Of a stretch of DNA of 56,253 nucleotides, positions 10,088 to 56,253 are shown piece after piece. Below the pieces are notes generated by a model, which was given only the letters and a program-made list of their open reading frames with translations, was not told where the DNA came from and ran no database searches. Source of the stretch: Vulcanimicrobiaceae bacterium (GTDB taxonomy: Bacteria; Vulcanimicrobiota; Vulcanimicrobiia; Vulcanimicrobiales; Vulcanimicrobiaceae). Location of the stretch: positions 1 through 56,253 of the forward strand of contig JBDTCF010000026.1 of the NCBI GenBank assembly GCA_039923715.1. Reading direction: 5' to 3'. A program made the translations under genes and the position numbers. Position 1 is the stretch's first letter, and each line of letters opens with the position of its first letter.

Positions 10088-10107
10088 GCAGCCCTTACGG
10101 AGTATCC

Positions 10108-14068: not shown

Positions 14069-14075
14069 TAGCGCG

Positions 14076-20462: not shown

Positions 20463-20539
<77 letters not shown>

Positions 20540-36896: not shown

Positions 36897-36907
36897 TCGT
36901 CAGGCGG

Positions 36908-38724: not shown

Positions 38725-38737
38725 TCGATCGAACGTG

Positions 38738-39388
38738 CTATTGCGCGAGTGATTCGGCCGGCAAAGCATACGACCGCGCGTGCTTTGCTTCGGAGAGACG
38801 GAGTCGCTCGCGTCCGGCAACACGTTCGCCCGGCCGGAGCCGCTCGAAACGTGCGATGGTGTCGGCATCGGCGGCGACAATTCCGACGACGCGCCCACCG
38901 GATTGCTCGATCGTCCGGATCGTCAGCTGGTCTTCGTCGGACGGGGCCCGCCCGATGCGCACCGTTAAGAGGACGCCGTCGACCGAGTGGGCCAGCGCCA
39001 TCGCGGCGTTGCTGCTCAAGAACGTTCCCGCATCGACGATCGTGAAGTCGTACTTGGCGCGCATTTCTTGGACGAACGTCGCGAGGCGATCGCGGCCGAT
39101 GACGCTGCCATCTTCGCGGGACAGTTCGGCCGTCGTACCCTCGCCGACTTCCTTTCCCCGTCCCGTCAGTGAGACGAGAGCTGCGCGGTGGCCAGACTTC
39201 ATGAGGCTGCTGGCCAGCGAATGCGCCGTCAGACTCTTCCCGTCGCCGTCGAGCGCCGAGGTGACCATGACCACGGCGGGCATCTCGAACTCGGCTTCGA
39301 CGCGCGAGCGGAGCAGGTGCACTTGATGGTTCAAGGGGGTCTCGCTCGTTTCGATCCCCTGAAGATCGATGTCAATCGGCTCGTTCAT
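38738..39388 (-). CDS. CpsD/CapB-type (BY-kinase-like) P-loop ATPase, no C-terminal Tyr cluster
   Basis: The start has an ATGA overlap with the Wzz stop. Walker A is in VMVTSALDGDGKS and the Walker B-like motif is DFTIVDAG. The C-terminal 40 aa contain a single Tyr. Confidence 0.8.
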   Translation of the reverse strand: MNEPIDIDLQGIETSETPLNHQVHLLRSRVEAEFEMPAVVMVTSALDGDGKSLTAHSLASSLMKSGHRAALVSLTGRGKEVGEGTTAELSREDGSVIGRDRLATFVQEMRAKYDFTIVDAGTFLSSNAAMALAHSVDGVLLTVRIGRAPSDEDQLTIRTIEQSGGRVVGIVAADADTIARFERLRPGERVAGRERLRLSEAKHARSYALPAESLAQ

Positions 39389-40731: not shown

Positions 40732-40745
40732 GTGCTTATCCCCGT

Positions 40746-42062
40746 TTACAGTGCTGCAGCGTACGAGAGTCGAGGTTTAGGCGGCATAGCCGTTCGGCCG
40801 ATGCCGCGGTAGGTGAGGCCGGCCGAAGCGACGCGCCGTGCGTCGAGGACGTTGCAGCCGTCGACAACGACGCGCCGGCGCAGAGCGTGCGCGAACGATG
40901 AAGGGTCGATCGCGCTGAACTCGGGCCAATCGGTGAGCACCACAAGAGCGTCGGCGTTGGCGGCCTCGAGCGCCGAGCGAACGAGCCGGCTGCCGGGCGG
41001 AAGGGGCGCGACGTGGACCGCGGGATCGTAGGCGGTCATCGCAGCACCACGGGCGGCAAGCTGATCGATGATGCGTAGCGCCAGCGAGGTTCGGATGTCG
41101 TCCGTGCCCGCCTTGAACGCAAGCCCCCATACCCCGACCCTCGCCCCTTCGAGCGAGCCCAACTCGCGCTCCAGCACCTCGATGACGCGCATCGGCTGGC
41201 GCTCGTTGGCGCGCAACGTCGCTGAAAACAGTTCCCGGCTGGATTCCAGCTCCGTTGCGACGTGACGCATGCTTTTCACGTCTTTTTCGAAGCACGGGCC
41301 GCCAAAGCCGATACCAGGCCTCAAGAACTCCGAGCCGATGCGAGGATCGTAGCCCATCCCGCGCAACACGTCGTCCGAGTTGGCCCCCAACGCATCGCAC
41401 AGATTGGCGACCTCGTTCGCGTAGGTGATTTTCATCGCCAAGAACGCGTTCGAGCAACCCTTGACCAGTTCGGCGTTGCACAGAGACGTGAAGACCACGG
41501 GCCTTTGCAAGGCTTCGAACAGCCGGACGTAAGGTACGGCGATGGAAGCGTTAGGAGCGCCGACGATGATCCGGGCAGGCGCGAGAAAATCGAGCACGGC
41601 CGATCCCTCGCGCAAGAACTCAGGCGCGTAGGCGAGTTCCCCCCAGCCTTCCACGGTGGGCGCGAGGCGGTCGCACGTTCCCGGAGGGACGGTCGAGCGC
41701 ACCACGATCGTCGGCCAGGTCGAGAACCGGACGTTCGAGAGGTCCGCCAAGACGGACTCGAGCGCTCTGAGATCGGCGGACCCATCGTCCTGGGAGGGGG
41801 TCCCCACGGTGACGATCACAATTTCCGAGTCGCGAACGGCTGCTTCCAGCGAATCGAAAAAGTGCATCCGCCCCCGCGCGACATGCTTCTGAAGGGCCTC
41901 CTGAAGACCGGTTTCGCGATAGGGCGGCGAACCCAGACGGAGTCGCGCGATGCGCTCCGCCGCGATGTCGTAACCATGTACCGTCCAACCCAACTCCGCA
42001 AGCCCGATCATGGACGCCATGCCGACATAGCCGGTTCCAATAATGCAAATAGGTGCATCCAC
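40746..42062 (-). CDS. UDP-glucose/GDP-mannose dehydrogenase-family nucleotide-sugar dehydrogenase
   Basis: GTG start (VDAPICIIGTGYVGM, Rossmann motif). The catalytic Cys context is GIGFGGPCFEKDV. The C-terminal UDP-binding domain is present. The upstream 67 codons of the track ORF were rejected. Confidence 0.9.
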   Translation of the reverse strand: MDAPICIIGTGYVGMASMIGLAELGWTVHGYDIAAERIARLRLGSPPYRETGLQEALQKHVARGRMHFFDSLEAAVRDSEIVIVTVGTPSQDDGSADLRALESVLADLSNVRFSTWPTIVVRSTVPPGTCDRLAPTVEGWGELAYAPEFLREGSAVLDFLAPARIIVGAPNASIAVPYVRLFEALQRPVVFTSLCNAELVKGCSNAFLAMKITYANEVANLCDALGANSDDVLRGMGYDPRIGSEFLRPGIGFGGPCFEKDVKSMRHVATELESSRELFSATLRANERQPMRVIEVLERELGSLEGARVGVWGLAFKAGTDDIRTSLALRIIDQLAARGAAMTAYDPAVHVAPLPPGSRLVRSALEAANADALVVLTDWPEFSAIDPSSFAHALRRRVVVDGCNVLDARRVASAGLTYRGIGRTAMPPKPRLSYAAAL

Positions 42063-42064
42063 GC

Positions 42065-42700
42065 TTAGTACGCTCCCCGTTGGAATACGACGGAAAAGAA
42101 CGTCTGCACCAAAAGCGCACCGTCCAGCGCCGGCGACGCCCGTCGAATGTAGTCGATGTCGAGAGCGGTCGCCTCGGGACGATCCAGCGGGATTTGCGAC
42201 CGGCACGTCGCCTGCCAAATACAGGTGATTCCCGGCCGCACCAAGTGTCGCAGATGCTGCCAACGTTGGTAGTCGCCGATGACGAGCGGCATCTCCGGGC
42301 GCGGACCGATAAGCGACATGTCACCGCGCAAGACGTTGAAGAGTTGCGGCAACTCATCGATCGACGTTTTGCGGAGAAAACGGCCCACGTACGTAATCCG
42401 CGGGTCGGCCCCGTGGGTCGGCGAGCGACGATCTTGGCACTCGGTCTTGCGCATCGTGCGGACTTTATAGAGCGTGAACGTCCGCTCGAAGCGGCCGGCA
42501 CGCCGTTGACTGAACAAGGCGGGGCTGCCGTCTTCCAACCAGGTCAACAGGCATGCTGCGGCGATGATCGGCAACGCGAAGAGGAGCAGAATTGCGGCCA
42601 CGCTGACGTCCATCAGGCGCCGCGCGCGTGAGGCGGTCCGGTTGGGCCGGTACACGAGCGCCGCGTTCGCAGCCGGGAGCGTCGCTACTTGAGCAGCCAC
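42065..42700 (-). CDS. undecaprenyl-phosphate sugar-phosphate transferase (bacterial sugar transferase family, initiating enzyme)
   Basis: One TM, then ALFSQRRAGRFERTFTLYKVRTM, IDELPQLFNVLRGDMSLIGPRP, typical of WbaP/EpsL-type C-terminal domains. Confidence 0.9.
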   Translation of the reverse strand: MAAQVATLPAANAALVYRPNRTASRARRLMDVSVAAILLLFALPIIAAACLLTWLEDGSPALFSQRRAGRFERTFTLYKVRTMRKTECQDRRSPTHGADPRITYVGRFLRKTSIDELPQLFNVLRGDMSLIGPRPEMPLVIGDYQRWQHLRHLVRPGITCIWQATCRSQIPLDRPEATALDIDYIRRASPALDGALLVQTFFSVVFQRGAY

Positions 42701-43824
42701 AGCGCCCCGACCCCGCTGAGGATCGTCTGGAATATTCCTTTTGCGTCGACCTTGCGCCCCTCAGGAACAAAGACCACGTCGCCGTCCTTTAACTGCGGAT
42801 TCTGAGAGGTGTCTCCGCGCACGAGGCTACCGACGTCGTACGTCGTCTTCGTGTCGTTGCCGAGCACCTGTACCTTGGCCAGATCGGCCCACTTCGTCGG
42901 ACCTCCGGCGGCGTACAGTGCGCTCAGGAGCGAGAAGTTGGTCTTGAGCGTCACGGCGCCCGGTTTGTCGACGAGCCCGGCTACGACGATGCGCGGCGCT
43001 GCGGGGACGGTTACGGCATCACTCGGCTCGGCGGGTTGTTGGAAGACCGGATCGCCAAGCGCGACGAGTTGGATGGTGCCGCCGCGCACTAGCGCGATGT
43101 GCGAGGTCGCGGCCGAAATCGAGAGGCCGCCAACCTGCGTGAACGCGTCGGAGAGCGCTTCGTCGCTCCAGAGATATGCGCTCCCGGGCGTTCTGACTTC
43201 ACCGCTAACGCGCACCGCAATCGGCTTGTCGACGAGCACGACGGTGTCGCCGGGATGCAGCGTCGGCCCGCTGCCGCCGCCGGCCGAGAGCGCGGTAAGA
43301 TCGAAGGTCCCAAGCGTCTTGCCGTCGCGCATGACGCCGACGCGCCGCAGATCGATCCGGGAGGTCATGGTGGCGCCCAGTTGGGTGTCGGCGCGCACCG
43401 CGCCGTCGCTCGAAGCACTCGCGTCGCGACCGTTCACGGGCAAGTCGGCGAGCGCCGAGGCGAGGGTTTCACCGGGCTGAAACTTCAGAATTCCGCCCGG
43501 TCCACCCGAAACGAAAATTCTATCCGGCTGCGCTTTCAGTTGAACGTCGACCGCCGGCTTGATGACATAGCGCGCGAGCGCCACTCGGACGCGCTCGGCC
43601 ACTTGTTGCGTATCTAAGCCGTGAACGTCGACGGTCCCGGCCAAAGGCAACGAAATGCGCTCGGCGGCATTGACGCTGAACGGCCCGGTCAACTCGGGAT
43701 GGCCGTACACCGTCACGAAAAGTTGATCTCCTGCGTGAATCGCGGGCGTCGCTGCGATTGCCGCTGAAGCAAAAAGTAGCGCACTCGCCACGAGCAGTGA
43801 CCGTAAAATCGCTTGGATTCGCAA
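42685..43824 (-). CDS. polysaccharide export protein (Wza-like: Poly_export + SLBB domains)
   Basis: Signal peptide MRIQAILRSLLVASALLFASAAIA. A Poly_export-like segment is GDQLFVTVYGHPELTGPFSVNAAERISLPLAGTVDVHGL. There are repeated SLBB-like units and a hydrophobic C-terminal helix. Confidence 0.85.
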   Translation of the reverse strand: MRIQAILRSLLVASALLFASAAIAATPAIHAGDQLFVTVYGHPELTGPFSVNAAERISLPLAGTVDVHGLDTQQVAERVRVALARYVIKPAVDVQLKAQPDRIFVSGGPGGILKFQPGETLASALADLPVNGRDASASSDGAVRADTQLGATMTSRIDLRRVGVMRDGKTLGTFDLTALSAGGGSGPTLHPGDTVVLVDKPIAVRVSGEVRTPGSAYLWSDEALSDAFTQVGGLSISAATSHIALVRGGTIQLVALGDPVFQQPAEPSDAVTVPAAPRIVVAGLVDKPGAVTLKTNFSLLSALYAAGGPTKWADLAKVQVLGNDTKTTYDVGSLVRGDTSQNPQLKDGDVVFVPEGRKVDAKGIFQTILSGVGALWLLK

Positions 43825-43952: not shown

Positions 43953-45104
43953 TCAGTGTGTGAGGATTTCGTCGCTCGTCGGCCGGACGCCAAGCGCGCG
44001 AGCGGGAACGGGCGCCCGAGAAGCGGCGCCGCGGATCGCAGGACCAGGTCCGGCTCGGGTCGTGAGCGCGTGCGCTGCCGCGAAATACGCTCGCAGATAC
44101 AACCGCGCCGATTCTTCCAACGATAAACGCTCGCCAACGTACCGGCGGGGCGCGTAGCTACCTAAGTTGTTCAAGAACTGGTCGAGAGCGGGGACGAACT
44201 CTGCCGGTCTAGCGAAACGTTCGCCGCACGCCTCTGAAAAATACGGAACGGACGTCGCTTTGACGGGATTTATTCCCCAACGTTCCCGATTGGGGTCTAA
44301 CCAAAGACCTGGGTCCCAGGCCAAAATTGGTAGATCGCTGGCCATGGCCTCCTGGTAGGCCATACCCTGAGTCTCGTGCTCGCAGAGAAAAAGCATTGAG
44401 CGGCTGCGGCGTAGCAGCGCGCGGTATTCGGCATGCGTATAACGGCCGTACCGTACCAGTTCAAAACGAAGTGAGCGTCGTGTCAATTCCCCCAGGACGG
44501 GTTTGAGGAGATCCGGGACGAGGCTGCTGCGGTTCCAGCGGATTTTATCGTAGACGAGCACGTCAACGTCCTTGATCAAGTGCTTGGTCTGGGGCCATTG
44601 CCCTAAATCGATCCCGCCGAACCAAGGCCGCAAGACGTCCGAATCGTACACCGTTGCGAACTCATCTCGCATCCAGTCACACAAGGTAAGGTAGGAGTGA
44701 AAGTGGGGGCGGTCCATCAAGGTTGGGTTCTGCTTGGGGTGATCGTAGAGCCCCGGGCCAAGAACGGCCGGGTTCGTGAGATTCCAAGCATCAAGGATGT
44801 GCGGGTAGCCGCAAACTCCGACTGGATAGTCGGGATGGCGCCGGGCTAAGCCATAGTTATTCACGTGGACCGTTTGGTTTGAGCGCCTCAGCGCTCGGCA
44901 GAGGAGCAGAAACGACATCTCGAAGCCGGAAACACGCGACTTGTGCGGGCGGAAGGGCGCCGCTACTTTGCGCAAGCCACGTCGAAGTCGACGATCGCCG
45001 ATCATGAACGTATCACGATCGCGGTCCTCAAAAAAAAGGAGAACGTCGCGACCGAGTAAGAGTCCCGCACGCCGCTTTTTGTCCACGCTAGCCCTTCGAT
45101 TCAC
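43953..45104 (-). CDS. glycosyltransferase, GT-B (GT1/GT4-like)
   Basis: The GTG start has a GTGA overlap with the upstream stop. LFLCEHETQGMAYQEAMASDLPILAW matches the E-x7-E region of GT4 enzymes. GC is lower than in the flanks. Confidence 0.7.
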   Translation of the reverse strand: MNRRASVDKKRRAGLLLGRDVLLFFEDRDRDTFMIGDRRLRRGLRKVAAPFRPHKSRVSGFEMSFLLLCRALRRSNQTVHVNNYGLARRHPDYPVGVCGYPHILDAWNLTNPAVLGPGLYDHPKQNPTLMDRPHFHSYLTLCDWMRDEFATVYDSDVLRPWFGGIDLGQWPQTKHLIKDVDVLVYDKIRWNRSSLVPDLLKPVLGELTRRSLRFELVRYGRYTHAEYRALLRRSRSMLFLCEHETQGMAYQEAMASDLPILAWDPGLWLDPNRERWGINPVKATSVPYFSEACGERFARPAEFVPALDQFLNNLGSYAPRRYVGERLSLEESARLYLRAYFAAAHALTTRAGPGPAIRGAASRAPVPARALGVRPTSDEILTH

Positions 45105-45985
45105 GAGCTAGCGGCGAGACGCATGGCGAGCTGCGTCGCCGCCTCGGTGACTTCAGGCGAAGTTCCGGTATAGCCGGCGATCGAGAACGCGACGTCTTCT
45201 GCGCGCATGGACCGCGTGAATTCTTCGACTTTCGATTTCGAGAGCGGTCCCGGGCCCCAATACGTGTGACACCAGGAACGCTCGTCGGTCCACACGCCCG
45301 CCGCCTCAGCTCCAATCACCTTATCGACGTAGAGTCCATACACGAGCTGCTCGCCGACCGAACGCGCACGGGTGAATGCCACGTGCCATGGTCGTCCGGT
45401 GATCCGCTCGATCCGCTCGAGCGCTCCTAGAACAATCTCGCGATCCCAGCTGATGACGTTTCCGACGTAGTCGTCCATCGGCAGCTCGTCCGCCTTGACG
45501 CCCAAAAGCCGGCAGACGTTGCGGTGCCACTTGACGTGCGGCATCCCCGCCCTCACCCCGCCAGGCAGGCGGTACATTCTCGTGCGTCCGTCACGGACAA
45601 ATAACGCCCGATCGACGCGGCGTACGAAGCGCACGTCAGAATCGACGTTGACCAGGAGAGATTCCTTTGCGAGGGTCGGCGCACTCAGCTTGACGATTTG
45701 CTGAACGAGCCAACCCTTCGCCGGCACCATTGCCGGCATTGCAAACCACCACTTCTTAGAGAATCGAAGCTTGACGTAGCCCTTCGGAATGACGTCTTCG
45801 ACTGCGACGACGACGGTCCGACTGTTCTGAAGTCCTTGAAAGAGCTTCAGGTCGCAGGCGTCGACGATGATGTAGTGCTTCGCTTCGGGGGTCGCAAATG
45901 TAAGGATGCTTTCATTGAGGTCCCGACACGACTCGAGATCTCGTGAAAAACTCGGCGTGATAAAGGCGATGCCTTGTTCGTTCAA
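45101..45985 (-). CDS. hypothetical protein, possibly a nucleotide-diphospho-sugar transferase-like (GT-A-like) enzyme
   Basis: The TTG start lies 8 nt after GGAG and 22 nt after the NRPS stop. IAFITPSFSRD and a DxD-like VDSD are present. GC is lower than in the flanks. I am not confident of the family. Confidence 0.6.
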   Translation of the reverse strand: MNEQGIAFITPSFSRDLESCRDLNESILTFATPEAKHYIIVDACDLKLFQGLQNSRTVVVAVEDVIPKGYVKLRFSKKWWFAMPAMVPAKGWLVQQIVKLSAPTLAKESLLVNVDSDVRFVRRVDRALFVRDGRTRMYRLPGGVRAGMPHVKWHRNVCRLLGVKADELPMDDYVGNVISWDREIVLGALERIERITGRPWHVAFTRARSVGEQLVYGLYVDKVIGAEAAGVWTDERSWCHTYWGPGPLSKSKVEEFTRSMRAEDVAFSIAGYTGTSPEVTEAATQLAMRLAASS

Positions 45986-46007: not shown

Positions 46008-49000
46008 TTAGGCTCCTAGCACGGTGCGGAGGGTGCTAGCGAGCTCCTCGATGCGCTCGTGTACGGCCCCGACGTGCCCGCCGCGCATGGACACGAGGTC
46101 GACGCGTTTGGCTACGGCGCCCCAACCCATGGTCGGGTCGTCAAACATCGTGGTCTGATCTTCGCCCCAGAGAAGCGTTACGGCACCGTCGTAGATCTTC
46201 GGATGGTAGGTAAATGCGGCGACGAGATGCGCGAATGAGCTTTCGGTTTCTCGCGCGCCGCGCCGCTTCTCGAAGGGTTGCGGTTCTTGCACGCCCGCGG
46301 GGCGGTGCGAGCGATTCGCGAGCGAGCGAAGGGCGCGCCAAGCCGCGGGAAGCCCGGCGAACGGACCACTCACGGCCGCGGCGTGAAGCCGAGCGAGGTT
46401 ATAGCAGAAGCGGTCGCGCAGTCGTGGGTTCAGACGCGCGTCTCGACCAAAGCGTCGGATGACTGCGTCGAAGAAAGCGATCTTCTTGCTTGGCATCGGC
46501 GAAGAATTCATCAGAACGAGGGCTTCGACGGTCTCGCCGTCGGAGCGCAAGATGCGGGCGAGTTCGAATGCGACCAGGCCACTCGCGCAGAAACCGCCGA
46601 GACGGTATGGTCCGCGCGGCTGCACGCTGCGAATCCGGGCTGCGTAGTCGGTTGCCATGTCTTCGATCGTCGGCAGCAAGGGTAAACCGGCGGTCGCGTG
46701 CGGTGCGACGGCGTACATTGGTTGATCGGGACCGAGCGCGGTTCCCAGTCGGTGAGCGTAGAGACCCTCGGCGAAGAGATCCCCGTGGAAGAAGAACAAG
46801 GGCGGACGAGAACCGGACCCGTTCAACGTCACGATCGGAACTGCAGCCGTTGCGCGGCCATCGGAGAACGCGTCGATCGTGGCCGAAATCGCGGCAATCG
46901 TTGGCTGCTCGAGCAGCGGGCGAAGACGTAACTCGACGCCCCACTCTTGCTGCACTTGTGCGGCAAGGCGCACGGCGAGCAACGAGTGAAACCCGAGCGC
47001 GAAGATGTCAACGTCGCGATCGATCCGCTCGAGGCCGAGCAGCCGCCCGAGAATCTCGGCAAGGCGCGCCTCCGTCGGGGAGGGCTCAGCGCGGGGCTCC
47101 GCGGCCCCTTGACGAGTGGGATGAGGCAACGCGGAGCGGTCGAGTTTCCCGCTCGAAAGCCGCGGAAGCGTGGGCAGCAGCACGATCGCGGAGGGGATCA
47201 TGAACGCCGGAAGACGCGCGCCGAGCCAGACCCGCAGTTCGTCGACCGTAAGCCCCTCGCGGTCCGCGGTCCGTGGCACGACGTACGCCCAAATCGCTTT
47301 GTCGCCCGACGGCTCGGTCCCAACGATCGTTCGTGCGTCCGCGACGCCGGGGTGGTTCGACAGCACCGCTTCGATTTCGCTCGGTTCGATCCGAAAGCCG
47401 CGGATCTTCACTTGGTCGTCGAGTCGGCCAAGAAATTCCAGGTTCCCATCGGCATGCTGCCGGACGCGATCTCCCGTTCGGTACAACCGTGCGCCGGGAT
47501 CGTCCGAGAAGGGATCGCGGACGAAGCGCTCCGCCGTCAAGCCGGGCAGATTGACGTAGCCGAGCGAGAGTCCGTCGCCGCCCACGCACAGTTCGCCGAC
47601 CATGCCGAGCGATACCGGCTGCAGTTTCGCGTCGAGCACGTATGCGCTAGAGTTGGCGATCGGCCGTCCGATCGGCACACTGTGGCCGATGGCATCCGGC
47701 GACGGAATGACGTAGGCACAACTGAAGGTCGTGTTCTCCGTCGGGCCGTAGCCGTTGATCAAACGGCAATTCGGATATTCTTCCACGAAACGTCTCGCGT
47801 GGAGCGGCGAGACAACGTCGCCGCCGACGAGCAGGCGCCGCACGCTACCGAACGATTGGAAACCTCGTTCGACGGCCTCGCGGAAGACCGCGGCGGCAAG
47901 CCAGAGCGTCGTTACGCTGAAGCCCGCGACCGCTCGGTCAAGCTCCGCTAACGTCAGGATCCCGGGCGGGGCGACGGCCAAGCGTCCGCCGTTCAGCAGA
48001 GCCGCCCAAAGCTCGAACGTCGAGGCGTCGAACGCGAGCGGAGCGTACTGCAGGACGATGTCGTCGGCGCCGAGATTCACGTAGTTCGTGTGGCGCACGA
48101 GACGGGCTATCGCGCGATGCACGACCGTCACGCCTTTCGGGCTGCCCGTCGATCCGGACGTGTACATCACGTAAGCCGGGGCATCCGGCCCGCCAACCTC
48201 GTCCAGGGCGTCGTCGCGTTGAGCGCCGATCGAAGCGGACGCCTCGGCGAGATCGACGATGGTAGCGCCATCTTTTGGCAAGCGATTGAGCGACGTGCGC
48301 TCTGTGAGGATCAGGCTTACGCCCGCGTCCGCGACGATGAACCCGATGCGTTCCCGCGGGAACTCGGGTGCGAGCGGAACGTAGGACGCGCCCGCTTTGA
48401 GAATACCGAGTAGCACGACCGGAACGTCGGGCGAGCGCTCGAGTGCGACGCCAACCGCGGATTGCGGGCCGATGCCAAGGCCGCGTAAATAGCGGGCGAG
48501 CTGATTCGAGCGCCGGTCTAGCTCCGCGTACGTCAGCGTGGCGGCTTCGGCGCTGACCGCGATCGCCTGCGGAGTGCGCGCAACTTGACGCCCGAATATC
48601 CGCTGGACGCTCAGGCCGCGTTCGTACGCGCTCGACTCGCCCGCGCCGAGGGTTATGACGAGTCGCCGCTCGTCCTCACCCATAAGCGATAGCTCCGAGA
48701 GTGGGCTGTGCGGCGCACGAACCACCGAATCCAGCAGCGTCAGAAAATGGTCGAGCATCCGCTCGACGGTCTCGAGCCGATAGAGGTCGGTATTGAACTC
48801 GCACGACACGCGCCAGCCTTCAGGGCGTTCGACCATGAAGAAATTCAGATCGCAAATTGGGCCGGCGGAACGTGACGGAAGGTCGACGAGTTTGAAGCTG
48901 CCATACGTGGCGTTCTGAATGAACGAGCGCTGGTAAACGAAGTTGACCGAAAACAACGCGTTGCGACTCAAATCGCGCTTGGGGTTGACGATCGCTACGA

Positions 49001-50018
49001 GATCCTCGAGCGGGACGTGGCGCTGTTCCAGCGCGTCGGTGACGGAGTCGCGTGCCCGAACGAGCAGGTCGCTAAAGGGCGGATCGCCCTCTACGTCCGT
49101 GCGTAACGCGACCGTGTTGACGAAGGTCCCGACGAGTTGCTCGAAATCGACCTCTTCGCGGCCCGCAACTTGTGTCCCTAACACGATGTCGGTAGCGCCT
49201 GAATAGCGATGAAGGAGCACGAGCAGCGCCGCGTATGCAGTCATGAAGAGCGTACAGTTGTTCGCTCGAGCCAGCTCCGCCAAACCGCCGGAGAGGCGAC
49301 GTTCGAGCAACCGGGAGACGATGTCCCCGTTCGCAGTCTGGATCGGTGGCCGTGGCTTATCGGGAACGATCTCGAAACGCTCGAATCCCTGTAGCATCTT
49401 GCCGACATCACTATCGAACTCCGTCGACGACAGCGACTCCTGTTCCCAGGCCGTGTAGTCGACGTAGGTTGCGGTGAGTTCGGGCAGCGCAGGCGGCCGG
49501 CCGGCGGCGAGGTCGGCGCAGACCTGTCCCATCTCGCGGGCGAGGACCCCGACCGACCACCCGTCGCAGACCGCATGGTGCGCGGTCACCAAGAGCGTCG
49601 AAATACGCGGCCGTACACGAACGTGCGTGACCCGAACGAGCGGCGCGGTGGCCACGTCGAACGTGCGCTGCGCTTCGAGCAGGGCGACCCGATCCGCCTC
49701 GGCGTACGCTTCGTGCTCCGGCAGCGTCGTCAAGTCGATGAGGGGGATGTGAAACGCGACGACCGTCTCGACGACTTGCTGCGGCTCGCCCGCGACGGTC
49801 GTGAAGCGCGTCCGTAGAGGTTGATGGCGTGCGATGATGATATCCCACGCCTGCTCGAGCCGCGCGTGCGGGACGTCGCCTTCGAGACGCCAGCGTACCG
49901 CAACGTTGAGCCCGGGATTGTCGGGATGGAGCTGCGACTCAAACCAAAAGCGCTTTTGCGACTGAGAGCACGGTAACGACGGCGCGTACGGCTCGTCGCG
50001 CACAGGACTGGAGGTCAT
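46008..50018 (-). CDS. non-ribosomal peptide synthetase, C-A-T-TE (terminal module, Val-like specificity by eye)
   Basis: HHAVCDGWS (C); YVMYTSGSTGSPKGV, NGYGPTENTTF, YRTGDRVR and GRLDDQVKIRGFRIE (A); FALGFHSLL (PCP); LFFFHGD...GGFCASGLVAFE...GGH (TE). The ATGA overlap ties it to the upstream synthetase. Confidence 0.97.
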   Translation of the reverse strand: MTSSPVRDEPYAPSLPCSQSQKRFWFESQLHPDNPGLNVAVRWRLEGDVPHARLEQAWDIIIARHQPLRTRFTTVAGEPQQVVETVVAFHIPLIDLTTLPEHEAYAEADRVALLEAQRTFDVATAPLVRVTHVRVRPRISTLLVTAHHAVCDGWSVGVLAREMGQVCADLAAGRPPALPELTATYVDYTAWEQESLSSTEFDSDVGKMLQGFERFEIVPDKPRPPIQTANGDIVSRLLERRLSGGLAELARANNCTLFMTAYAALLVLLHRYSGATDIVLGTQVAGREEVDFEQLVGTFVNTVALRTDVEGDPPFSDLLVRARDSVTDALEQRHVPLEDLVAIVNPKRDLSRNALFSVNFVYQRSFIQNATYGSFKLVDLPSRSAGPICDLNFFMVERPEGWRVSCEFNTDLYRLETVERMLDHFLTLLDSVVRAPHSPLSELSLMGEDERRLVITLGAGESSAYERGLSVQRIFGRQVARTPQAIAVSAEAATLTYAELDRRSNQLARYLRGLGIGPQSAVGVALERSPDVPVVLLGILKAGASYVPLAPEFPRERIGFIVADAGVSLILTERTSLNRLPKDGATIVDLAEASASIGAQRDDALDEVGGPDAPAYVMYTSGSTGSPKGVTVVHRAIARLVRHTNYVNLGADDIVLQYAPLAFDASTFELWAALLNGGRLAVAPPGILTLAELDRAVAGFSVTTLWLAAAVFREAVERGFQSFGSVRRLLVGGDVVSPLHARRFVEEYPNCRLINGYGPTENTTFSCAYVIPSPDAIGHSVPIGRPIANSSAYVLDAKLQPVSLGMVGELCVGGDGLSLGYVNLPGLTAERFVRDPFSDDPGARLYRTGDRVRQHADGNLEFLGRLDDQVKIRGFRIEPSEIEAVLSNHPGVADARTIVGTEPSGDKAIWAYVVPRTADREGLTVDELRVWLGARLPAFMIPSAIVLLPTLPRLSSGKLDRSALPHPTRQGAAEPRAEPSPTEARLAEILGRLLGLERIDRDVDIFALGFHSLLAVRLAAQVQQEWGVELRLRPLLEQPTIAAISATIDAFSDGRATAAVPIVTLNGSGSRPPLFFFHGDLFAEGLYAHRLGTALGPDQPMYAVAPHATAGLPLLPTIEDMATDYAARIRSVQPRGPYRLGGFCASGLVAFELARILRSDGETVEALVLMNSSPMPSKKIAFFDAVIRRFGRDARLNPRLRDRFCYNLARLHAAAVSGPFAGLPAAWRALRSLANRSHRPAGVQEPQPFEKRRGARETESSFAHLVAAFTYHPKIYDGAVTLLWGEDQTTMFDDPTMGWGAVAKRVDLVSMRGGHVGAVHERIEELASTLRTVLGA
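46011..46810 (-). other. domain: type-I thioesterase with Cys at the nucleophile position
   Basis: PLFFFHGD, PYRLGGFCASGLVAFELA (TGC codon at 46587-46589 where the GxSxG Ser is expected) and MRGGHVG near the C-terminus. Confidence 0.8.
46880..47080 (-). other. domain: peptidyl carrier protein (module 2)
   Basis: IFALGFHSLLAV, with the Ser codon at 46983-46985. Confidence 0.85.
47120..48600 (-). other. domain: adenylation (module 2; hand-read code D-A-F-W-L-G-G-T-F, Val code)
   Basis: FDASTFE, TTLWLA, LLVGGD, NGYGPTENTTF, YRTGDRVR and GKLDR. Confidence 0.8.
48700..49970 (-). other. domain: condensation (module 2)
   Basis: SQSQKRFWFESQL, HHAVCDGWS, and downstream motifs to SCEFNTDLY. Confidence 0.85.
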
Positions 50019-53000
50019 GGTGACCTCTGTTCGGCGGCTCGGCGCAGGCCGGCACGTTCGGGTTGCTGCGTGGGCCGCAAGCGCGCGACCGAAGCGGACG
50101 GGACGTCCGAGCGCCGTTTATCCGATGTTCGGGCCAACTCGTCGAGGCGCAGCGCCAATGCGGCGATCGTCGGGTGCCGCAGCAGTTCTTTGGCAGCGAG
50201 ACGAAGGCCGGCCCGGTTCGCCCGTGCCGTGATTTGGAAGAGCTGGATCGAATCGCCGCCGAGCGCGAAGAAGTCGTCGTCGAGTCCGACGCGTTCGAGG
50301 TGGAGAACATCGGCCCAGACCCGCGCGAGTAACAGTTCCGTTGGCGTGACCGCGGCCCGAAAGCGGTCGCTGTCAGCCGTCGGTTCCGGCGCTGGTAGCA
50401 AGCTGCGGTCGACTTTTCCGGCGACCGAAAGCGGCATGCGCTCCAGCTTGGTCCAGACCGATGGAATCATGAAGTCCGGAAGGTGCGCCGCCGCGAGCGC
50501 CCGCAGCTCTGCCGGTGTGCGACCAGGTTCCTCACGGTCGACATAGTAGGCCGCCAGCCGGGGCTCGCCCCCTCGATCCTCACGCAGTACGACCGCGACT
50601 TCGGCCAGCCCGCCTTCTTTTTGAACGACCGTTTCAATTTCGGCCAGTTCGATCCTGAAACCGCGAAGTTTCACTTGACGGTCGAGGCGACCTAAAATCT
50701 GCACGCGTCCATCGCGCGCGATTCGCGCGCGGTCTCCAGTACGGTACATACGGCCGTTACCAAACGGATTGGCGACAAACTTCTCGGCGCTGAGCTGCGC
50801 TCGGTTCACGTAGCCGCGTGCGACCCCGTCCCCGGCGACGTTCAGATGACCCGGAGCGCCGATCGGTACCGGGCGATCGCGGCGATCGAGAACGTAGAAC
50901 TGCGTGTTCGCTATCGGCGTCCCGACGGCAATCGGCTCGTCGCCGATTTCGATCTTTCCGCACGACGACCAAATCGTCGTCTCGGTCGGGCCGTAGACGT
51001 TCCAGAGGGTCCCGCCGCCGGCGAGCAGCCGGTTCGCAAGCTCGCGCGTGAGCGTTTCGCCGCCGCAGATCATTGTGAACCCCGCATGCGACTGAAAGCC
51101 GGCAGCGAGCAGCAGCTGCCAGAGCGCCGGAGTGGCCTGCATCGCCGTCGCTCCGAGGGCTCGCGCGCGCCGTGCGAGGGCGAACGCATCGGAAGTCTCT
51201 TCGCGGGATGCGATCGCGACGGTCGCACCGACGACCAGCGGCAGGAACAACTCGAGCGCGGCGATGTCGAACGAAACGGTCGTCACGGCCAGCAGAAGGT
51301 CGTCCCTACCAAAACCGGGCGTCCGCGACATTGACGTCAGCAGGTTAACGACCGAGCGGTGCGCGATCTCGACCCCTTTCGGCTCGCCGGTCGAGCCGGA
51401 GGTGTAGATGACGTAGGCCGCGTCGTCGCCCGACCGAGCGACGGCAGGCGCCTGCGAAGATGCAGCGCCAAGCGCTTGGGCGGCTTCACTCACGTCGATC
51501 CGTTCGACTGTGCCGGACGCGATCGCGGCGTCGGCCGTGCCGTCGTCGATGAGCGCGGCGACGCCGGCATCGTCGAGGATACGGCGTAGCCGCGCGACCG
51601 GATGGGCGGTGTCGAGCGGCAGGTAACTACACCCGGCGGCGAGTGTTGCCAGCATGGCGACCAGAAGGTTGGGCGTGCGGTCGACGCAGATCGCAATGCG
51701 CCGGCCGGCCCCGACGCGCTCGAGCAGGTGGTTCGCCATCTGATTGACGCGTCGTTCCAAAGCGGCAAACGTCAGCGTCTCGTCGCCGAAACGCACGGCG
51801 ACGGCATCCGGGTTGGCCGCGGCGCTCGCGCGGAACAGCTCGTGCACCGTCTGCGCGACCGGATAGGCGGCGGCGGTGGCGTTGAGGCCCGCGAGCAGTT
51901 GACGCTCGTCGTCCGGAAGGAAATCAACGCCGGCCACGGGCTGCGAGGCGTCCTGGCCGATTCGTTCGAGGAGCGTACGGAAGTAGCCGAGCCACCGCTC
52001 GATCGTTGAGGCGTCGAAAAGATCGGCGTTGTAGTCGCAATCGAGGCGCAGGCCGTCACGCGACTCGACGACGTTGAGAAAGAGATCGAAGTTTACGAAT
52101 GCCTTCGGATTCGGCTCGACCCGCGCTTGCAGGGGGCCAAAGTCCAAGTCTTCGGCCAGGCGTTCCAGATTGAATTGAATCTCCGCAATTGGGACGCGGT
52201 TGTTCTCGCGCTGCACGGCTAAGCTGCGAACGAGGGTGCCGAGCGTGTATTCTTGGTGCTCGTACGCGTCGATGACTTGATGCTTGAGGCTGGATAAGAG
52301 GTCGCGAAGCGTGGTCTCGGACGTTCGCCGAGCGCGGATCGGCAAGAAATCCACGCAGTGGCCGACGAGCGTATCGCCGCCGAGGAGCGCCTGTCCGGCG
52401 GCCGGCACGCCGACGACGACGTCGTCCCGATCGGCAAGGCGTCCGACGAGCACGTCGAACGCCGCCAGCAGCGTCACGAACAGCGTACAACCGTGTCGCG
52501 CGCCCGCTTGTTTGATCGCGCGGGAAGCGTCGTGGCCGACGAATGCGGTCCGGGTCGCTCCCCGGTACGTCCTCGTCGCCGGTCGCGGCCGGTCCGTCGG
52601 TAGGTCGAGGACCGTCGGCAGATCTTCGAACTGCGCGAGCCAATAGGACTCGACCTTAGCACGCTCCTCGGGATCGCGCGCGGCTTGGCGGCGCGCGTAG
52701 TCCGCGAACGCAAGCGCTTCGGGCAACTGCGGCTCCTGCTGCTTGGAAAGCGCGGAATAGGTTTGCGCCAGTTCGGAGAGGATCACGTTCATCGACCACC
52801 CGTCGCAGACGATGTGGTGCGCCGTGAAGACGAAGGCGTGTTCGTCGAGGGTGAGCCGAACCAGGTGTCCGCGCACGAGCGGCCCGTTGCTTAGGTCGAA
52901 CGCAGTTCGAGCATCCTCGGCGACGATCGCGCAGAAGTCCGCCTCCCGTTGGGAGGTCGAACCGCCGGAAAGATCCGTCCGTGGATACGCGCGCGGGCTG

Positions 53001-56000
53001 GGGGACGCGAAGTGCATCATTTCGCCGGTCGTGCCGAAAGCGGCGCGCAAGGCATCGTGTCGGGCGATGACACGTTCCCACGCGGTCTGAAATGAGGACT
53101 CATCGAGCGATCCGCGCAGACGGAGCGTAACCGACTCGTTGAAGGCGCACGAGGCGTCGTCGCCAACCTGCGCCGAAAGCCAAATCTCGGTTTGTTCCTC
53201 CGTCAGCGCGACCGAGGCGAGGTCCGTCCGCGGAACGATTACCGGAAGGGCCGGCGCTCGCGCAACGAACACGCCGGCGCTCTGCAACTCGTCGAGGCTC
53301 TCCGAAAAAGCGGCCACGATCGCGTCGACATCGGCATCGTCGTGCTCGGTGCCCAAGAAACTCGGGAAGCCTTCCTGCACGTAGATGCCGCGCAGGCGGA
53401 GGTGATAGTAGAGCAGGCTCGCGAGGCGGTCCTCGGTAGCGAAGTTCAGATAAAAGAGGCTGCCGTAGGTTTCGATGCGCGAGACGATGCCGCGTCGTTC
53501 GAGCTGTGCGTTGAGGCGTTCGACGAGTCCGGCGGTGCGGCGTCCAAGCGCGACTTGGAGTTTCGGTCCCTCGGCTTTTACCCGCTGCAGCACGGCGAGC
53601 ACGGCCGCCATGGCAAGAGGGTGGCGCACGAACGTACCGGCGATGAACGTCGGCGCGACTTGTGGGAAGGAATCGTCTCCGTATTGCCACGCGCCGCCAT
53701 CGAGCGCGTCCATGAACCGGGCCTTCCCGGCGAGAATGCCGATCGGAAGACCGCCGCCGACGACTTTGCCGTAGGTCGCGAGGTCGGCCTTGATGCCGAA
53801 GATCGCCTGCATGCCGCCCGGATGCATGCGAAACCCCGTGACGACCTCGTCGAAAACGAGCGCGGCGCCAGAAGCTTCGGTGATCCGACGCAATTCGAGC
53901 AGAAAGTCTTTTGGCGCGAGCCCGGGATGCCGGCTTTGGACCGACTCGACGACCACGGCCGCCAGCTCGTCCCGGTGTTCGCGCACCCAGACCAAACTCT
54001 CATCGGCTCCGTACGGCAGGACCGTAATGTTCGCGACGGCCTCGGCGGGAATGCCGAGCGCAACGGGGAGCGAGCGATTCGACGTTCGTGAGCCCTTCAC
54101 GAGGACTTCATCGAACTGCCCGTGATACGCCCCTTCGAAGATGACGACGCGGTCTCGGTTGGTCACCGTCCGCGCGACGCGCAGGGCCGCCATTACGGCC
54201 TCGGAGCCGGTGTTGCAGAAGGTGATTCGCTCGTTGCCGGTCAGTTCACAAAAGAGTTCCGCCGCTTCGCCGGCGAGCTGGGTCTGCGGCCCGATCGCAA
54301 ATCCGGTGCGTAGCTGTTCGGAAACGGCGTCGACGACGAAGTCGGGTACGTGTCCGAACGCCGTCTGACCGAAACCGTTGAGCAAGTCGAGGTACTCGTT
54401 GCCGTCGGCATCCCAGATGCGCGACCCCTTCGCACGCACGCAGGTGATCGGATAAACCATCTCCTTCCACTCGCTGCGGAATCCGGCGGCGACGCGGGGA
54501 TCGGCCAGCACCTTGCGGTAGCGCTGGGTCAAGCGCTTCGATTCGCCCGTGCGAGCGACGGTGCGCGCGACAAGATCGTCGATGTGCTCGCGTTGCGCGG
54601 GCGTAACGTCTGCTTTTTGCGCCCCGGCGATGCCGAATGCTTCGGCCGGCGAAGCGGCCGCGGGCCGGCAAGCCTCCACCGCGGGAGCCGCCGGTTCTAG
54701 CGTCGGCGCAGCACGTTCGAGCGCCGGCGCAGCGGACTCGATCCCGAACGCCTTGAGCGTTTGTAACTGCTCGCGCAGCAGGCCCTGCAGCGCCTGCAGT
54801 TGCTCGCGCATCAGGCCTTCAACCGCCTCCGGAAGCGGCGCGGACGCGAGGGGTGCGCGCGGCGGAATTCGCGAGCCGGTTTCGGTGGAAACCGCTTCCG
54901 TCACCGGGCGGGCCGGCATCCGAGCGGCAAGGTGGTCCGCCAGCGCAACGATCGTGGGGAGGTCGCTAAGAAGTTGCCGAAAGCTCGCGCTGACGCCAAA
55001 ACGCAACTGGACTTGCTGGACGAAGCGGCCGAGAAACAACGAGTCGAATCCGAGTTCGAGAAAGGTCGCACGCGGATCCGCATCGGCGAGCCGCTCTCCC
55101 GAGAGTTCCTCCAGCAGCGCGAGCAGTTCGGTACGCGCGCGCGCCGAGGCCGCGGTGGTTTCCACGTGACCGGATTCAACGTCATGATGGTGCATGCTCT
55201 CCGTCCGCGGCGGTGCCGCTACGCTCGAATTGGGTTCGAGCCAGTGGCGTGTGCGCTCGAATGGATACGTCGGGAGGGAAACGCGCGAGCGGACCGTACC
55301 GCGCGCAAGCGCGTCCCAGTCGGGCGTCGCACCGGCGATCCACAAGCGACCCAGCGTCTCGAGCAACCCCTCGAAATCGCCGATCTCGCGCTCGCTGCCG
55401 GGCAACGTGCGAAGGACAATCGCGTCGCCGTTCTTGGCGGCGCCTTGTAACGCGAACGTCGAGAGCGTTGCGCCCGGTCCCACTTCGAGCAGCACATTCA
55501 CGCCGCCGTCCACGAGCGTCTGCAAAGCGTCCGCAAATCGAACCGGGACGCGACAGTGCCGCGCCCAATAGTCCGCACTGGTCGCTTCCGCGTCTTCGAT
55601 CCACGTACCGGTCACTCCCGATACGTACGGTAGCGAGGGTGGCGAGAGTAGCTTCCCCGCGACGCGTCGCGAGAGCGGCGCGAGCACCGGCTCCATCATT
55701 GCCGAATGGAACGCATGCGACGCGTGCAACCGTCGCGAGCTGACGCCCGTTGCGGCGAGGCGCAGCTCCATTTCTTCGATGGCGTCCAGCGTTCCCGAGA
55801 CGACGGCTAGTCGTGGCGCGTTGAGCGCGGCGATGTCTAGGTTGCGCTCCAGCAGCCTGCCGAGCTCGGATTCGCCGGCCCGCACGACCAGCATTGCGCC
55901 TGCCGGGAGGTCCTGCATCAGACGGCCTCGCTCGGCGACGAGCGTAAGCGCGTCTTCGAGCGAGAATACGCCGGCCAAACACGCAGCGACAAATTCCCCG

Positions 56001-56253
56001 ACACTGTGTCCGACGACGGCGGCCGGCTCGATGCCGTAGTCTTGCAATACTTTCGCCAAGGCGTACTCAACGGCGAACAGCGCCGGCTGCGCGATCCGGG
56101 TCGCCGTCAAATCGGCCGCCTGGTCGCCGGCAAACAGCAGCGTGCGCAGGTCTCGCCCGAGCAGCGGCTGCAGGATATCGGCGCAAGCATCGAAGCACGT
56201 TCGAAACGTCGTAGCGCGCTCGTAAAGGCCACGTCCCATCCCGAGGTACTGTG
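50015..56253 (-). CDS. hybrid PKS/NRPS, 5'-truncated by the window: AT-ACP-aminotransferase-C-A-T
   Basis: The frame is open to the window edge ([11 protein letters not shown] is the start of an AT domain). GHSVGE/HAFHS, LGFDSL, a class-III aminotransferase block, [24 protein letters not shown]...[15 protein letters not shown] and LGGDSIQ are present. Confidence 0.97.
   Translation of the reverse strand, partial: [2078 protein letters not shown]
50130..50340 (-). other. domain: peptidyl carrier protein (module 1)
   Basis: [14 protein letters not shown], with the Ser codon at 50249-50251. Confidence 0.85.
50390..51870 (-). other. domain: adenylation (module 1; hand-read code D-I-L-Q-I-G-V-I-W, Gly-like)
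   Basis: [40 protein letters not shown] and GKVDR. Positions were assigned by aligning to the GrsA numbering from memory. Confidence 0.8.
51960..53215 (-). other. domain: condensation (module 1)
   Basis: [22 protein letters not shown], and downstream C-domain motifs up to [10 protein letters not shown]. Confidence 0.85.
53280..54610 (-). other. domain: class-III (glutamate-1-semialdehyde aminomutase-like) aminotransferase embedded in the synthetase
   Basis: [55 protein letters not shown] and the PLP-lysine context [14 protein letters not shown]. Confidence 0.85.
54920..55150 (-). other. domain: acyl carrier protein
   Basis: [14 protein letters not shown], with the phosphopantetheine Ser codon at 55040-55042. 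Confidence 0.85.
55241..56253 (-). other. domain: acyltransferase (malonyl-type by the HAFH motif)
   Basis: GMGRGLYE, the active site GHSVGE (Ser codon 56003-56005), SHAFHS and the post-AT linker [11 protein letters not shown]. Confidence 0.9.

Follow-up and report, generated by a model that had tools for sequence, protein, structure and literature searches.

The window analysed here is a whole contig of 56,253 nt. Two adjoining genes on its minus strand form a genuine polyketide/peptide assembly line, of which the window carries the 3' two-thirds, and two glycosyltransferase-like genes come after them. The features are given in the order of transcription, each gene being followed by its domains.

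50015..56253, minus strand: hybrid PKS/NRPS gene, 5'-truncated, in the order [KS missing]-AT-ACP-AmT-C-A(Gly-like)-T (Pfam, translation, full-length relatives)
55331..56251, minus strand: acyltransferase AT, malonyl-type, with GHSVGE and HAFHS (PF00698 / Acyl_transf_1, E 6e-47)
54917..55129, minus strand: ACP with LGFDSL, Ser404 (first PP-binding stretch in Pfam, and motif)
53276..54595, minus strand: class-III PLP-dependent aminotransferase (AMT) domain (PF00202; MycA AMT 6KFM)
51893..53212, minus strand: condensation domain C1 with HHIVCDGWS, at the PKS-to-NRPS interface (PF00668, E 1e-83; residues 1014-1453)
50414..51835, minus strand: adenylation domain A1, code DILQIGVIWK, predicted Gly-like (PF00501 and PF13193; PheA alignment)
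50153..50329, minus strand: carrier domain T1 with GGDSIQ, Ser2001 (PF00550; residues 1975-2033)
46008..50018, minus strand: NRPS termination gene C-A(predicted Val)-T-TE, 1336 aa (Pfam; sequence read directly)
48663..49976, minus strand: condensation domain C2 with HHAVCDGWS (PF00668, E 3e-86; residues 15-452)
47145..48590, minus strand: adenylation domain A2, code DAFWLGGTFK, predicted Val (PF00501 and PF13193; PheA alignment)
46875..47066, minus strand: carrier domain T2 with LGFHSL, Ser1012 (PF00550; residues 985-1048)
46011..46802, minus strand: thioesterase TE with a Cys nucleophile, GGFCASG (PF00975; match from residue 1073)
45101..45985, minus strand: DUF6492 protein, starting 23 nt past the TE stop (PF20102)
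43953..45104, minus strand: glycosyltransferase-like protein, GT-B/GT4-like (weak PF00534/PF13692 matches)

As translated in the window (50015-56251, minus strand), the hybrid protein comprises 2078 aa and ends at a TGA stop codon (50015-50017). Its frame remains open right up to the contig end, and the KS is thus absent because the assembly ends there. The edge also cuts the N-terminus of the AT by about ten profile positions, since AT residues 1-307 match positions 10-316 of the Acyl_transf_1 profile. The motifs GHSVGE, HAFHS, HHIVCDGWS and GGDSIQ as well as a 14-residue stretch (letters not shown) with the PLP lysine K829 are intact. The AMP-binding match of A1 spans residues 1473-1814 and is accompanied by AMP-binding_C; that of A2 covers residues 477-821 of the termination protein, again together with AMP-binding_C, and this last A domain is complete, with K517 present. 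The termination protein is similar over its full length to solved C-A-T(-TE) modules, among them those of LgrA, SrfA-C and AB3403, and it has the HHxxxDG of the C domain, the A10 lysine and the GxxS serine of the T domain, followed by the TE, as in a canonical C-A-T-TE module.

These observations are in good agreement with a preliminary description of the locus. It had proposed the order AT-ACP-aminotransferase-C-A-T plus C-A-T-TE, which Pfam returns with all catalytic motifs intact, and an ATGA joining both genes, which is read directly at 50015-50018, where the ATG of the termination gene overlaps the stop of the hybrid gene. It had further placed the KS beyond the window, and full-length relatives indeed begin with a KS. 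Neither protein has a stretch long enough for an epimerisation (E) domain, as had been stated, and the line ends after only two post-AMT modules: no further NRPS genes were found in the other 46 kb of the window.

According to Pfam, the AMT sits between the ACP and the C domain. The segment 53280-54610, described earlier as an embedded PLP aminotransferase, was checked by profile search and matches PF00202 (Aminotran_3) at hybrid protein residues 600-959 (E 2e-50). Its best solved relative is the MycA AMT (6KFM; E 1.4e-121, residues 1-440 of 441 aligned), and the matches to glutamate-semialdehyde aminomutases (GSAM) are far weaker, at about 1e-56. The PLP lysine K829 (nt 53765-53767) lies in YGKVVGGG, a motif kept in 119 of 120 homologues. 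The domain is a MycA-type, assembly-line-embedded class-III aminotransferase. The MycA AMT converts a 3-oxo group to an amine, with Gln as donor (PMC3870968).

The likeness to MycA and ItuA, subunit A of the mycosubtilin and iturin synthetases, extends to the order KS-AT-ACP-AMT-C-A-T, the KS being known here from full-length relatives; by analogy, the AMT would act before any peptide bond is formed, aminating a beta-keto thioester bound to the ACP. A second comparison is offered by McyE/NdaF of microcystin and nodularin synthesis, in which an AMT between ACP and C turns the beta-keto group into a beta-amine ahead of C-A-T. The embedding of the AMT in a hybrid PKS/NRPS protein is the same, but McyE is fed with a long polyketide (Adda) by PKS modules that lie upstream. 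Here, the KS belongs to the only PKS module: in the relatives no other PKS genes lie within 10 kb of the hybrid gene, which is preceded only by an A-T and a PPTase gene, and no multi-module polyketide chain would enter the line.

The specificity codes of both A domains were read from a MAFFT alignment to a PheA reference segment, which returns the canonical DAWTIAAICK. DILQIGVIWK was obtained for module 1 and DAFWLGGTFK for module 2, identical to the codes extracted by hand in the preliminary description, and DILQ/A-LGMIWK-type codes occur across the family. From these codes, A1 is predicted to be Gly-like, given DILQLGLIWK as what is presumably the reference code for Gly, and A2 is predicted to activate Val.

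The thioesterase carries Cys1144 (nt 46587-46589) as its nucleophile, which aligns to the Ser of 7CRN (GWSLGS) and to the Cys of AB3403 (4ZXH; GWCFGG). Cys takes this position in 55 of 62 TE domains of the family. Among structurally characterised NRPS thioesterases, a Cys nucleophile occurs only in ObiF (beta-lactone), SulM (beta-lactam) and AB3403, and the SulM type is marked by a Gln-Cys-Asn motif and by a last A domain for a beta-functionalised residue such as Dap or a beta-OH residue (PMC11298585). The window TE shares the Cys with all three, and AB3403 is among its best matches. It differs from SulM in having Phe-Cys-Ala instead of Gln-Cys-Asn, and from ObiF and SulM in its predicted last residue, Val, which is neither a beta-hydroxy nor a beta-amino acid. 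The sequence by itself implies no four-membered-ring product.

The gene family spans Eremiobacterota, from which the window probably comes, as well as Acidobacteriota and Proteobacteria, cultured strains included. In all 80 GTDB loci fetched (58-87% AMT identity), KS-AT-ACP-AmT-C is found wherever the contig allows. Full-length hybrid relatives measure 2595-2651 aa, are up to 72% identical, and start with a KS whose Cys-His-His is intact (CSTSL, HGTATP, NVGH). The cluster occurs in many soil bacteria.

The starter unit of the window's line has to be read from these relatives, of at most 72% identity, because the KS, loader and PPTase are all off the contig. Every close relative whose contig reaches upstream (L083, at 72% identity, L001, L002, L004 and L005) has an NRPS A-T didomain gene before the KS, followed by a gene for an Sfp-type PPTase between loader and hybrid gene. 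The nearest relatives share an operon of A-T (609 aa), PPTase, hybrid and C-A-T-TE genes, in this order, whose ends overlap. The loader reaches 438 bits on TIGR01733 ('amino acid adenylation domain'; cut-off 317), retains D235 and K517, has the code DAFFLGVTFK (Ile/Val-like) or DAFWLGGTFK, and is 49-59% identical to the Val-activating A2 of the window. In 31 of 107 complete homologues (about 29%), the A-T is fused to the N-terminus of the KS. Since an A-T loader precedes the KS or is fused to it, the acyl part made by the window's line is most likely derived from an amino acid, too.

The 'iturin logic' of the preliminary description, with a beta-amino fatty-acyl starter, is not supported by this comparison. 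Under this model, a fatty acid would enter through a FAAL or AL-ACP beyond the window, be extended by the KS and transaminated, and end up in a lipodipeptide, beta-amino fatty acyl-Gly-Val, resembling a small-scale iturin or microginin. Iturin-family initiation modules do share the AT-ACP-AMT-C-A-T order and the MycA-like AMT, and the loader of the window's own organism is off the contig. However, MycA opens with an acyl ligase and an ACP that load a fatty acid, whereas no fatty-acyl ligase or FAAL was found beside the hybrid gene in the relatives inspected. Their upstream AMP-binding protein is an amino-acid A-T with Val/Ile/Thr-type codes, the closest relative has the same A-T/PPTase arrangement, and the A-T-KS fusions speak against a fatty acid as well. 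Iturin synthesis also runs to seven residues and uses E domains and a TE that forms a macrolactam; here we find two post-AMT modules, no E domain and a Cys-TE. We regard the lipodipeptide as already disfavoured and very improbable. The A-T loader is moreover an additional NRPS module that docks onto these proteins, which the preliminary description had itself named as evidence against its reading.

Beyond the TE, the DUF6492 protein is predicted to be a GT-A-fold sugar or sugar-phosphate transferase. Its AF2 model (pLDDT 96) has the Stealth phosphotransferase CpsY (8J2N) as best Foldseek match (E 5e-9), with GNPTAB, GT6 and glycogenin next; in its DSD motif, D115 and S116 never vary, and D117 is conserved in at least 90%. 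The start of the GT-B-like gene is uncertain (the source annotation gives 303 aa); its homologues are named glycosyltransferase, some of them with PF00534. These neighbours raise the possibility that the peptide receives a sugar or is linked to the neighbouring exopolysaccharide or to some other part of the envelope, the PKS/NRPS then belonging to a cell-surface pathway in the Eremiobacterota clade. In agreement with this, DUF6492 follows the TE in L001, L002 and L004, in L001 and L004 together with the GT-B-like gene, while L005 has a PMT_2 GT-C there. DUF6492 and hybrid homologues share a contig in at least 10 cases, and a co-directional Wza/Wzz/Wzx/Wzy cluster lies further on in the window and in L001. 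However, the 10-kb flanks of loci outside the Eremiobacterota clade showed neither DUF6492 nor the GT-B-like gene, so that these two do not belong to the conserved core of the family. Homologues of the GT-B-like protein are numerous in unrelated phyla, a divergent regulator gene stands between the GT genes and the export genes in L001, and the adjacency could be coincidental. We consider such glycosylation or an envelope role rather unlikely.

Implementing these facts, the scheme we favour, with somewhat better than even confidence, is an amino-acid-primed NRPS-PKS-NRPS line that joins Ile/Val to one malonate, transaminates the beta-keto group and then adds Gly-Val. The missing 5' end would supply a KS. 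A stand-alone A-T protein, whose Ile/Val-like code points to a branched aliphatic amino acid, would prime it, and the malonyl-specific AT loads the ACP. Ile/Val-S-T and malonyl-ACP would give a 4-amino-3-oxoacyl-ACP, whose 3-oxo group the AMT would turn into an amine, as in MycA chemistry. BioA (7,8-diaminopelargonate synthase), a class-III PF00202 PLP aminotransferase with SAM as donor, likewise converts an alpha-amino ketone to a vicinal diamine, that of biotin. The parallel would be one of chemistry only, here on a carrier-bound chain: BioA is free-standing and acts on a free acid, and the window AMT falls in the MycA/GSAM-like branch, not with BioA. C1 would then couple the 3,4-diaminoacyl unit to Gly, C2 would add Val, and the Cys-TE may free the chain by hydrolysis, intramolecular aminolysis or transfer. 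Cupin hydroxylases (Fe(II)/2OG), a TIGR04325 methyltransferase and an alpha/beta hydrolase probably tailor the product; across the loci the hydrolase is found in 26, the cupin in 21 and the methyltransferase in 17, and the relatives' cupins keep HxD...H.

This colinear scheme may miss a protection or modification step, since a gamma-amino-beta-keto thioester, if free, could close into a tetramic acid on its own. The same chemical awkwardness would fit a non-colinear line, in which a short acyl-CoA or acyl-ACP primes the KS, giving e.g. beta-aminobutyryl-Gly-Val, and the A-T serves another carrier in trans, for instance in family members whose last module is without an A domain. The terminal protein does vary (C-A-T-TE, C-TE without carrier, C-C-T-TE); in many relatives it is a C-TE or C-C-T-TE protein that has no A domain of its own, so that the family must somewhere use in-trans loading or a non-canonical step. 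Against this, the fusions in about 29% of homologues place the loader directly before the KS, and the complete A domain of the window's last module makes a trans loader unnecessary. We regard a non-colinear line as quite improbable.

For the amino-acid-primed line, the outcome would be a 3,4-diamino (vicinal diamine) pseudo-tetrapeptide, 3,4-diamino-acyl-Gly-Val. Of the beta-amino-acyl-Gly-Val core proposed earlier, Gly-Val stands with the codes, and the acyl part becomes 3,4-diamino in the light of the relatives' loader. The scaffold had not been recognised before, and our literature searches returned no description of it or of the product either; MIBiG, antiSMASH and BiG-FAM were outside their scope, so a recent characterisation may be missed. 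Started from an amino acid instead of a fatty acid, as the relatives indicate, the line would probably yield a small peptide bearing two neighbouring amino groups rather than a lipopeptide.

The gene that runs into the contig end (50015-56251, minus strand, 2078 aa) was assigned by Pfam an Acyl_transf_1 domain at residues 1-307, matched from profile position 10, followed by PP-binding, Aminotran_3 (600-959), Condensation (1014-1453), AMP-binding with AMP-binding_C (1473-1946) and a further PP-binding domain (1975-2033). No stop codon closes its frame before the window runs out, and since the window is the whole contig, the gene is cut by the assembly end and not by biology. The second gene (46008-50018, minus strand, 1336 aa), which on direct reading of the sequence overlaps this hybrid gene by an ATGA at 50015-50018, comprises Condensation, AMP-binding with AMP-binding_C, PP-binding and Thioesterase domains. 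The expected motifs are intact: GHSVGE and HAFHS in the malonyl-type acyltransferase (AT), LGFDSL in the acyl carrier protein (ACP), the PLP-lysine motif in the aminotransferase domain (AMT), HHIVCDG and HHAVCDG in the first and second condensation domains (C1, C2), and the serines of GGDSI and GFHSL in the two downstream carrier domains (T1, T2); the A10 lysines of the adenylation domains (A1, A2) are present as well. This is in good agreement with the domain order and gene overlap proposed in the preliminary description. Gene calling by GC3 only was too noisy, and the ORFs were verified through family searches.

Specificity codes extracted pairwise were gapped at some positions, and those of the key domains were taken from a MAFFT alignment to a PheA reference segment. 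The segment itself yields the canonical DAWTIAAICK. The resulting codes, DILQIGVIWK for A1 and DAFWLGGTFK for A2, reproduce exactly those derived by hand before. An epimerisation (E) domain, whose absence had also been stated, was found in neither gene, and no unassigned stretch in them is long enough for one. The linker between ACP and AMT (54596-54916, minus strand) is Ala/Pro-rich with a conserved heptad-like helix, which recurs directly before the AMT in the homologues inspected, e.g., VVREQLEAMQQLMRAQLETLKG.

Over its whole length, the 441-residue AMT segment (53276-54595) can be aligned with the solved AMT of the mycosubtilin synthase MycA, 6KFM (E = 1.4e-121), while its free-standing relatives, the glutamate-semialdehyde aminomutases, match far more weakly (E of about 1e-56). 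Together with the PF00202 profile match, this bears out the embedded aminotransferase of the first reading; judged by these alignments, the segment is a genuine assembly-line AMT. In MycA, this domain moves the amine from Gln onto an ACP-bound beta-keto thioester (PMC3870968). In a library clustered at 50% identity, 3232 cluster representatives match the AMT at E <= 1e-30, and the best 150 of these all reach E <= 2e-146.

A degenerate-pattern scan for the AMT over one genome per GTDB species confirmed at least 589 relatives. In the best 80 of these, AMT identity ranges from 58 to 87%, and the order KS-AT-ACP-AMT-C-A-T is found in all of them wherever the contig permits. The closest of these 80 loci, with 76-87% AMT identity, belong to Eremiobacterota (UBP12, 'Candidatus Eremiobacteraeota', Vulcanimicrobiaceae). 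Other carriers among them are Acidobacteriota, Paraburkholderia, Alphaproteobacteria (Bradyrhizobium, Bosea, Labrys, Reyranella, Methylocella, Ancylobacter, Sinorhizobium, Rhizobium) and Gammaproteobacteria (Solimonas, Nevskia, Steroidobacteraceae). Cultured carriers include Paraburkholderia nodosa DSM 21604, Reyranella massiliensis 521, Labrys sp. KNU-23, Bosea lupini, Bradyrhizobium rifense and Solimonas soli DSM 21787.

Hybrid homologues number in the thousands in the protein database, the best being 72% identical. Complete ones have about 2600 aa and read KS-AT-ACP-AMT-C-A-T with the Cys-His-His of the KS intact; the predicted KS of the window gene would lie beyond the window edge, as anticipated. 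Where relatives have gene calls, one co-directional order with overlapping gene ends is shared: an AMP-binding/PP-binding protein of about 610 aa comes first, then an Sfp-type PPTase, then the hybrid gene and finally C-A-T-TE. This order is present in L083 (the locus of the 72% identical homologue), in the metagenomic or MAG loci L001 and L002, and in the GTDB loci L004 and L005.

Pfam labels alone would make the 610-aa protein a fatty-acyl-AMP ligase (FAAL-ACP), which is overturned by TIGR01733 and the specificity code. The protein scores 438 bits on the NCBIfam model TIGR01733 'amino acid adenylation domain' (cut-off 317), retains the alpha-amino-binding D235 as well as K517, carries the code DAFFLGVTFK (DAFWLGGTFK in L005; MAFFT), and is 49-59% identical to the Val-activating A2 of the window. 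In 31 of the 107 complete homologues among the top matches, A-T is fused to the KS N-terminus. This class of about 3300 aa includes a protein of Paraburkholderia nodosa, and such a fusion speaks strongly for A-T serving the KS as its loading module. Loader codes in the best 80 of the at least 589 GTDB loci are mostly of Val/Ile type; some alphaproteobacterial loaders carry DFWNIGMVHK, of Thr type. Loader features, fusion and codes in the relatives together argue for a starter that is predicted to be an amino acid rather than a fatty acid, and the iturin-type beta-amino fatty-acyl starter suggested earlier is not supported. In L005 (3109-5787, Vulcanimicrobiaceae), the loader ORF has 892 aa, and the only match to its N-terminal extension is the C-terminal half of a condensation domain. 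This partial domain may be a remnant, or may hint at acylation of the starter amine in some members.

Across the family, the first module after the AMT almost always has a DILQ/A-LGMIWK-like code, and the last protein is more variable. In the clade of the window it is a C-A-T-TE protein whose code is that for Val, and other members have C-A-T-TE with a Gly-like or degenerate code. In P. nodosa and Reyranella it is a C-TE didomain in which a carrier domain was not detected, and in Bradyrhizobium C-C-T-TE without an A domain. Variant last proteins in cultured relatives lie at L044:14654-16957, L042:14392-16758 and L040:14582-18481. The second A domain of several other loci has a degenerate code without K517.

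The thioesterase (TE) of the window has a Cys as nucleophile, its GGFCASG being aligned with GWSLGS of 7CRN and GWCFGG of AB3403. An alignment of 62 family TE domains has Cys at this position in 55 and Ser in seven. Among structurally characterised NRPS TEs, a nucleophilic Cys is known only from ObiF (which forms a beta-lactone), SulM (which forms a beta-lactam) and the uncharacterised AB3403 (PMC11298585). The window TE has the Cys in common with the four-ring-forming enzymes, but it does not carry the Gln-Cys-Asn motif of SulM and the last residue of its chain is predicted to be Val; it is thus not established as a four-ring former.

When the flanking ORFs were clustered across the loci, four accessory families emerged as conserved: an alpha/beta hydrolase of PAF-AH/PETase-like type (26 loci), Cupin_8/JmjC-like proteins with up to three paralogues and HxD...H triads, which weakly resemble the Asn hydroxylase FIH (21 loci), a TIGR04325 methyltransferase (17 loci), and PPTases. 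L001 (2355-7094, minus strand) and L002 (207-5580, minus strand) carry three Cupin_8/JmjC-like paralogues of about 290-300 aa with 31-37% mutual identity and HxD...H kept. They are divergent and upstream of the loader, together with the TIGR04325 methyltransferase, the alpha/beta hydrolase and one or two PMT_2 (GT-C) genes. The same clustering found no conserved transporter or TonB receptor, which would support a metallophore role; isolated hints of this kind are FecR in the vicinity of L042 and, near L002, a protein with a Plug domain.

From these data, a chemical logic can be proposed. Condensation of the aminoacyl-S-T with malonyl-ACP would give a 4-amino-3-oxoacyl-ACP, which the AMT would convert to a 3,4-diaminoacyl-ACP; C1 would then add Gly and C2 Val, with release by the TE as the last step. 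This predicts a pseudo-tetrapeptide backbone, Ile/Val-psi[CH(NH2)CH2CO]-Gly-Val, that contains a vicinal diamine. A precedent for the amination is BioA of biotin synthesis, a class-III aminotransferase that turns an alpha-amino ketone into a vicinal diamine. For a MycA-type domain acting on a carrier-bound chain, no description of vicinal-diamine formation was found in the literature. Since a gamma-amino-beta-keto thioester tends to lactamise when free, a protecting or tailoring step not recognised here may occur.

A more far-reaching proposal, which we consider rather unlikely, is a scaffold class for which no description was found, in which a carrier-bound amino acid, lengthened by one malonate and then transaminated, yields a short beta,gamma-diamino peptide, the family-wide Cys-TE releases it by an unusual ring closure, and the product has a general ecological role. 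Under this proposal, intramolecular aminolysis by either amine would form a small or medium lactam in most members, and the Val-terminated Eremiobacterota clade could form a beta-lactone after cupin-mediated beta-hydroxylation. Since the cluster is common to several soil-bacterial phyla, the role would be, e.g., metal binding or enzyme inhibition, and not that of a strain-specific antibiotic.

A DUF6492 gene (45101-45985, minus strand) begins 23 nt past the TE stop. Its predicted structure (pLDDT 96) has a GT-A fold, and the closest structures by Foldseek are the Stealth-type hexose-1-phosphotransferase CpsY and GlcNAc-1-phosphotransferase (GNPTAB), followed by GT6 and GT8 enzymes. It has a DSD motif with invariant D115 and S116 and with D117 conserved to at least 90%. 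PDB sequence searches returned nothing for this protein or for the GT-like protein encoded next to it. A word-based search found 126 homologues of this Pfam family of unknown function, few with a source name, mostly Eremiobacterota. The gene follows the TE in L001, L002 and L004, and its homologues share a contig with hybrid homologues in at least ten cases, as judged by identical contig sizes; no copy was detected in the 10-kb flanks of loci that lie outside the Eremiobacterota clade. The next gene encodes a GT-B-like protein whose homologues are named glycosyltransferase, and a complete polysaccharide locus follows on the same strand in the order Wza/UDP-glucose dehydrogenase/Wzz/epimerase/Wzx/GT2/GT2/Wzy.

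Polysaccharide locus and other located genes of the window
32210-43824, minus strand, whole Wzx/Wzy-type polysaccharide locus, co-directional with the NRPS genes
42685-43824, minus strand, Wza-like exporter
40746-42263, minus strand, UDP-glucose dehydrogenase
39385-40731, minus strand, chain-length determinant (Wzz)
37750-38898, minus strand, NAD epimerase/dehydratase
35463-36896, minus strand, Wzx flippase
34444-35664 and 33501-34451, minus strand, two GT2 genes
32210-33631, minus strand, Wzy_C polymerase/ligase
25414-27381, acetyl-CoA synthetase
20463-20539, tRNA-Met

Given this adjacency, the peptide may receive a sugar or become attached to the polysaccharide, or the genes may be chance neighbours. 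L001 has a similar polysaccharide locus as neighbour. A 307-aa protein inside the window locus (36908-37831, minus strand) has no Pfam match and a weak TIGR04352 'HprK-related kinase A' match (E = 5e-6), far below the cut-off. Elsewhere in the window lie a phosphate-related block (8438-15775, plus strand) with a Ppx/GppA phosphatase, a PAS/HisKA histidine kinase, a PBP_like_2 binding protein and two permeases (Pst-like), and housekeeping genes for a transketolase, a Zn-ADH, a class I/II aminotransferase, a patatin and a DinG-like helicase.

The window AMT belongs to the domain family of the MycA/McyE-type module, and the system works alike in this step. Judged from the window and its relatives, it is not an iturin-type lipopeptide synthetase, because of the predicted amino-acid A-T loader, the two post-AMT modules as opposed to seven, the missing E domains and the Cys nucleophile of the TE. 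The earlier notion of a truncated iturin does not hold. The scaffold was rightly called unfamiliar: full-text literature searches on DUF6492, on the AMT with lipopeptide, diamine or carrier genera, on Eremiobacterota clusters and on paenilamicin, with MIBiG outside their scope, returned no description of this architecture or a matching product. The carenaemin cluster was ruled out as a match, being different and PUFA-linked (PMC8313283). In the literature consulted, paenilamicin is described as a linear cationic aminopolyol peptide, and no AMT-made diamine was found there.

The system is one among very many product-orphan hybrid clusters, and everything said on its product is prediction. Three features set it apart, namely conservation across phyla, a predicted building block with a vicinal diamine, and a Cys-TE that is conserved. 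It is not a one-off, as its core occurs in all 80 best of at least 589 loci from several phyla, and because several carriers are cultured, the prediction is directly testable. If the proposed logic is right, the cluster represents a natural route to beta,gamma-diamino acids within a peptide, in which an iturin-type AMT domain is put to new use on a beta-keto thioester derived from an aminoacyl group and combined with a Cys thioesterase. It would also offer a first chemical entry point to the secondary metabolism of the uncultured Eremiobacterota.
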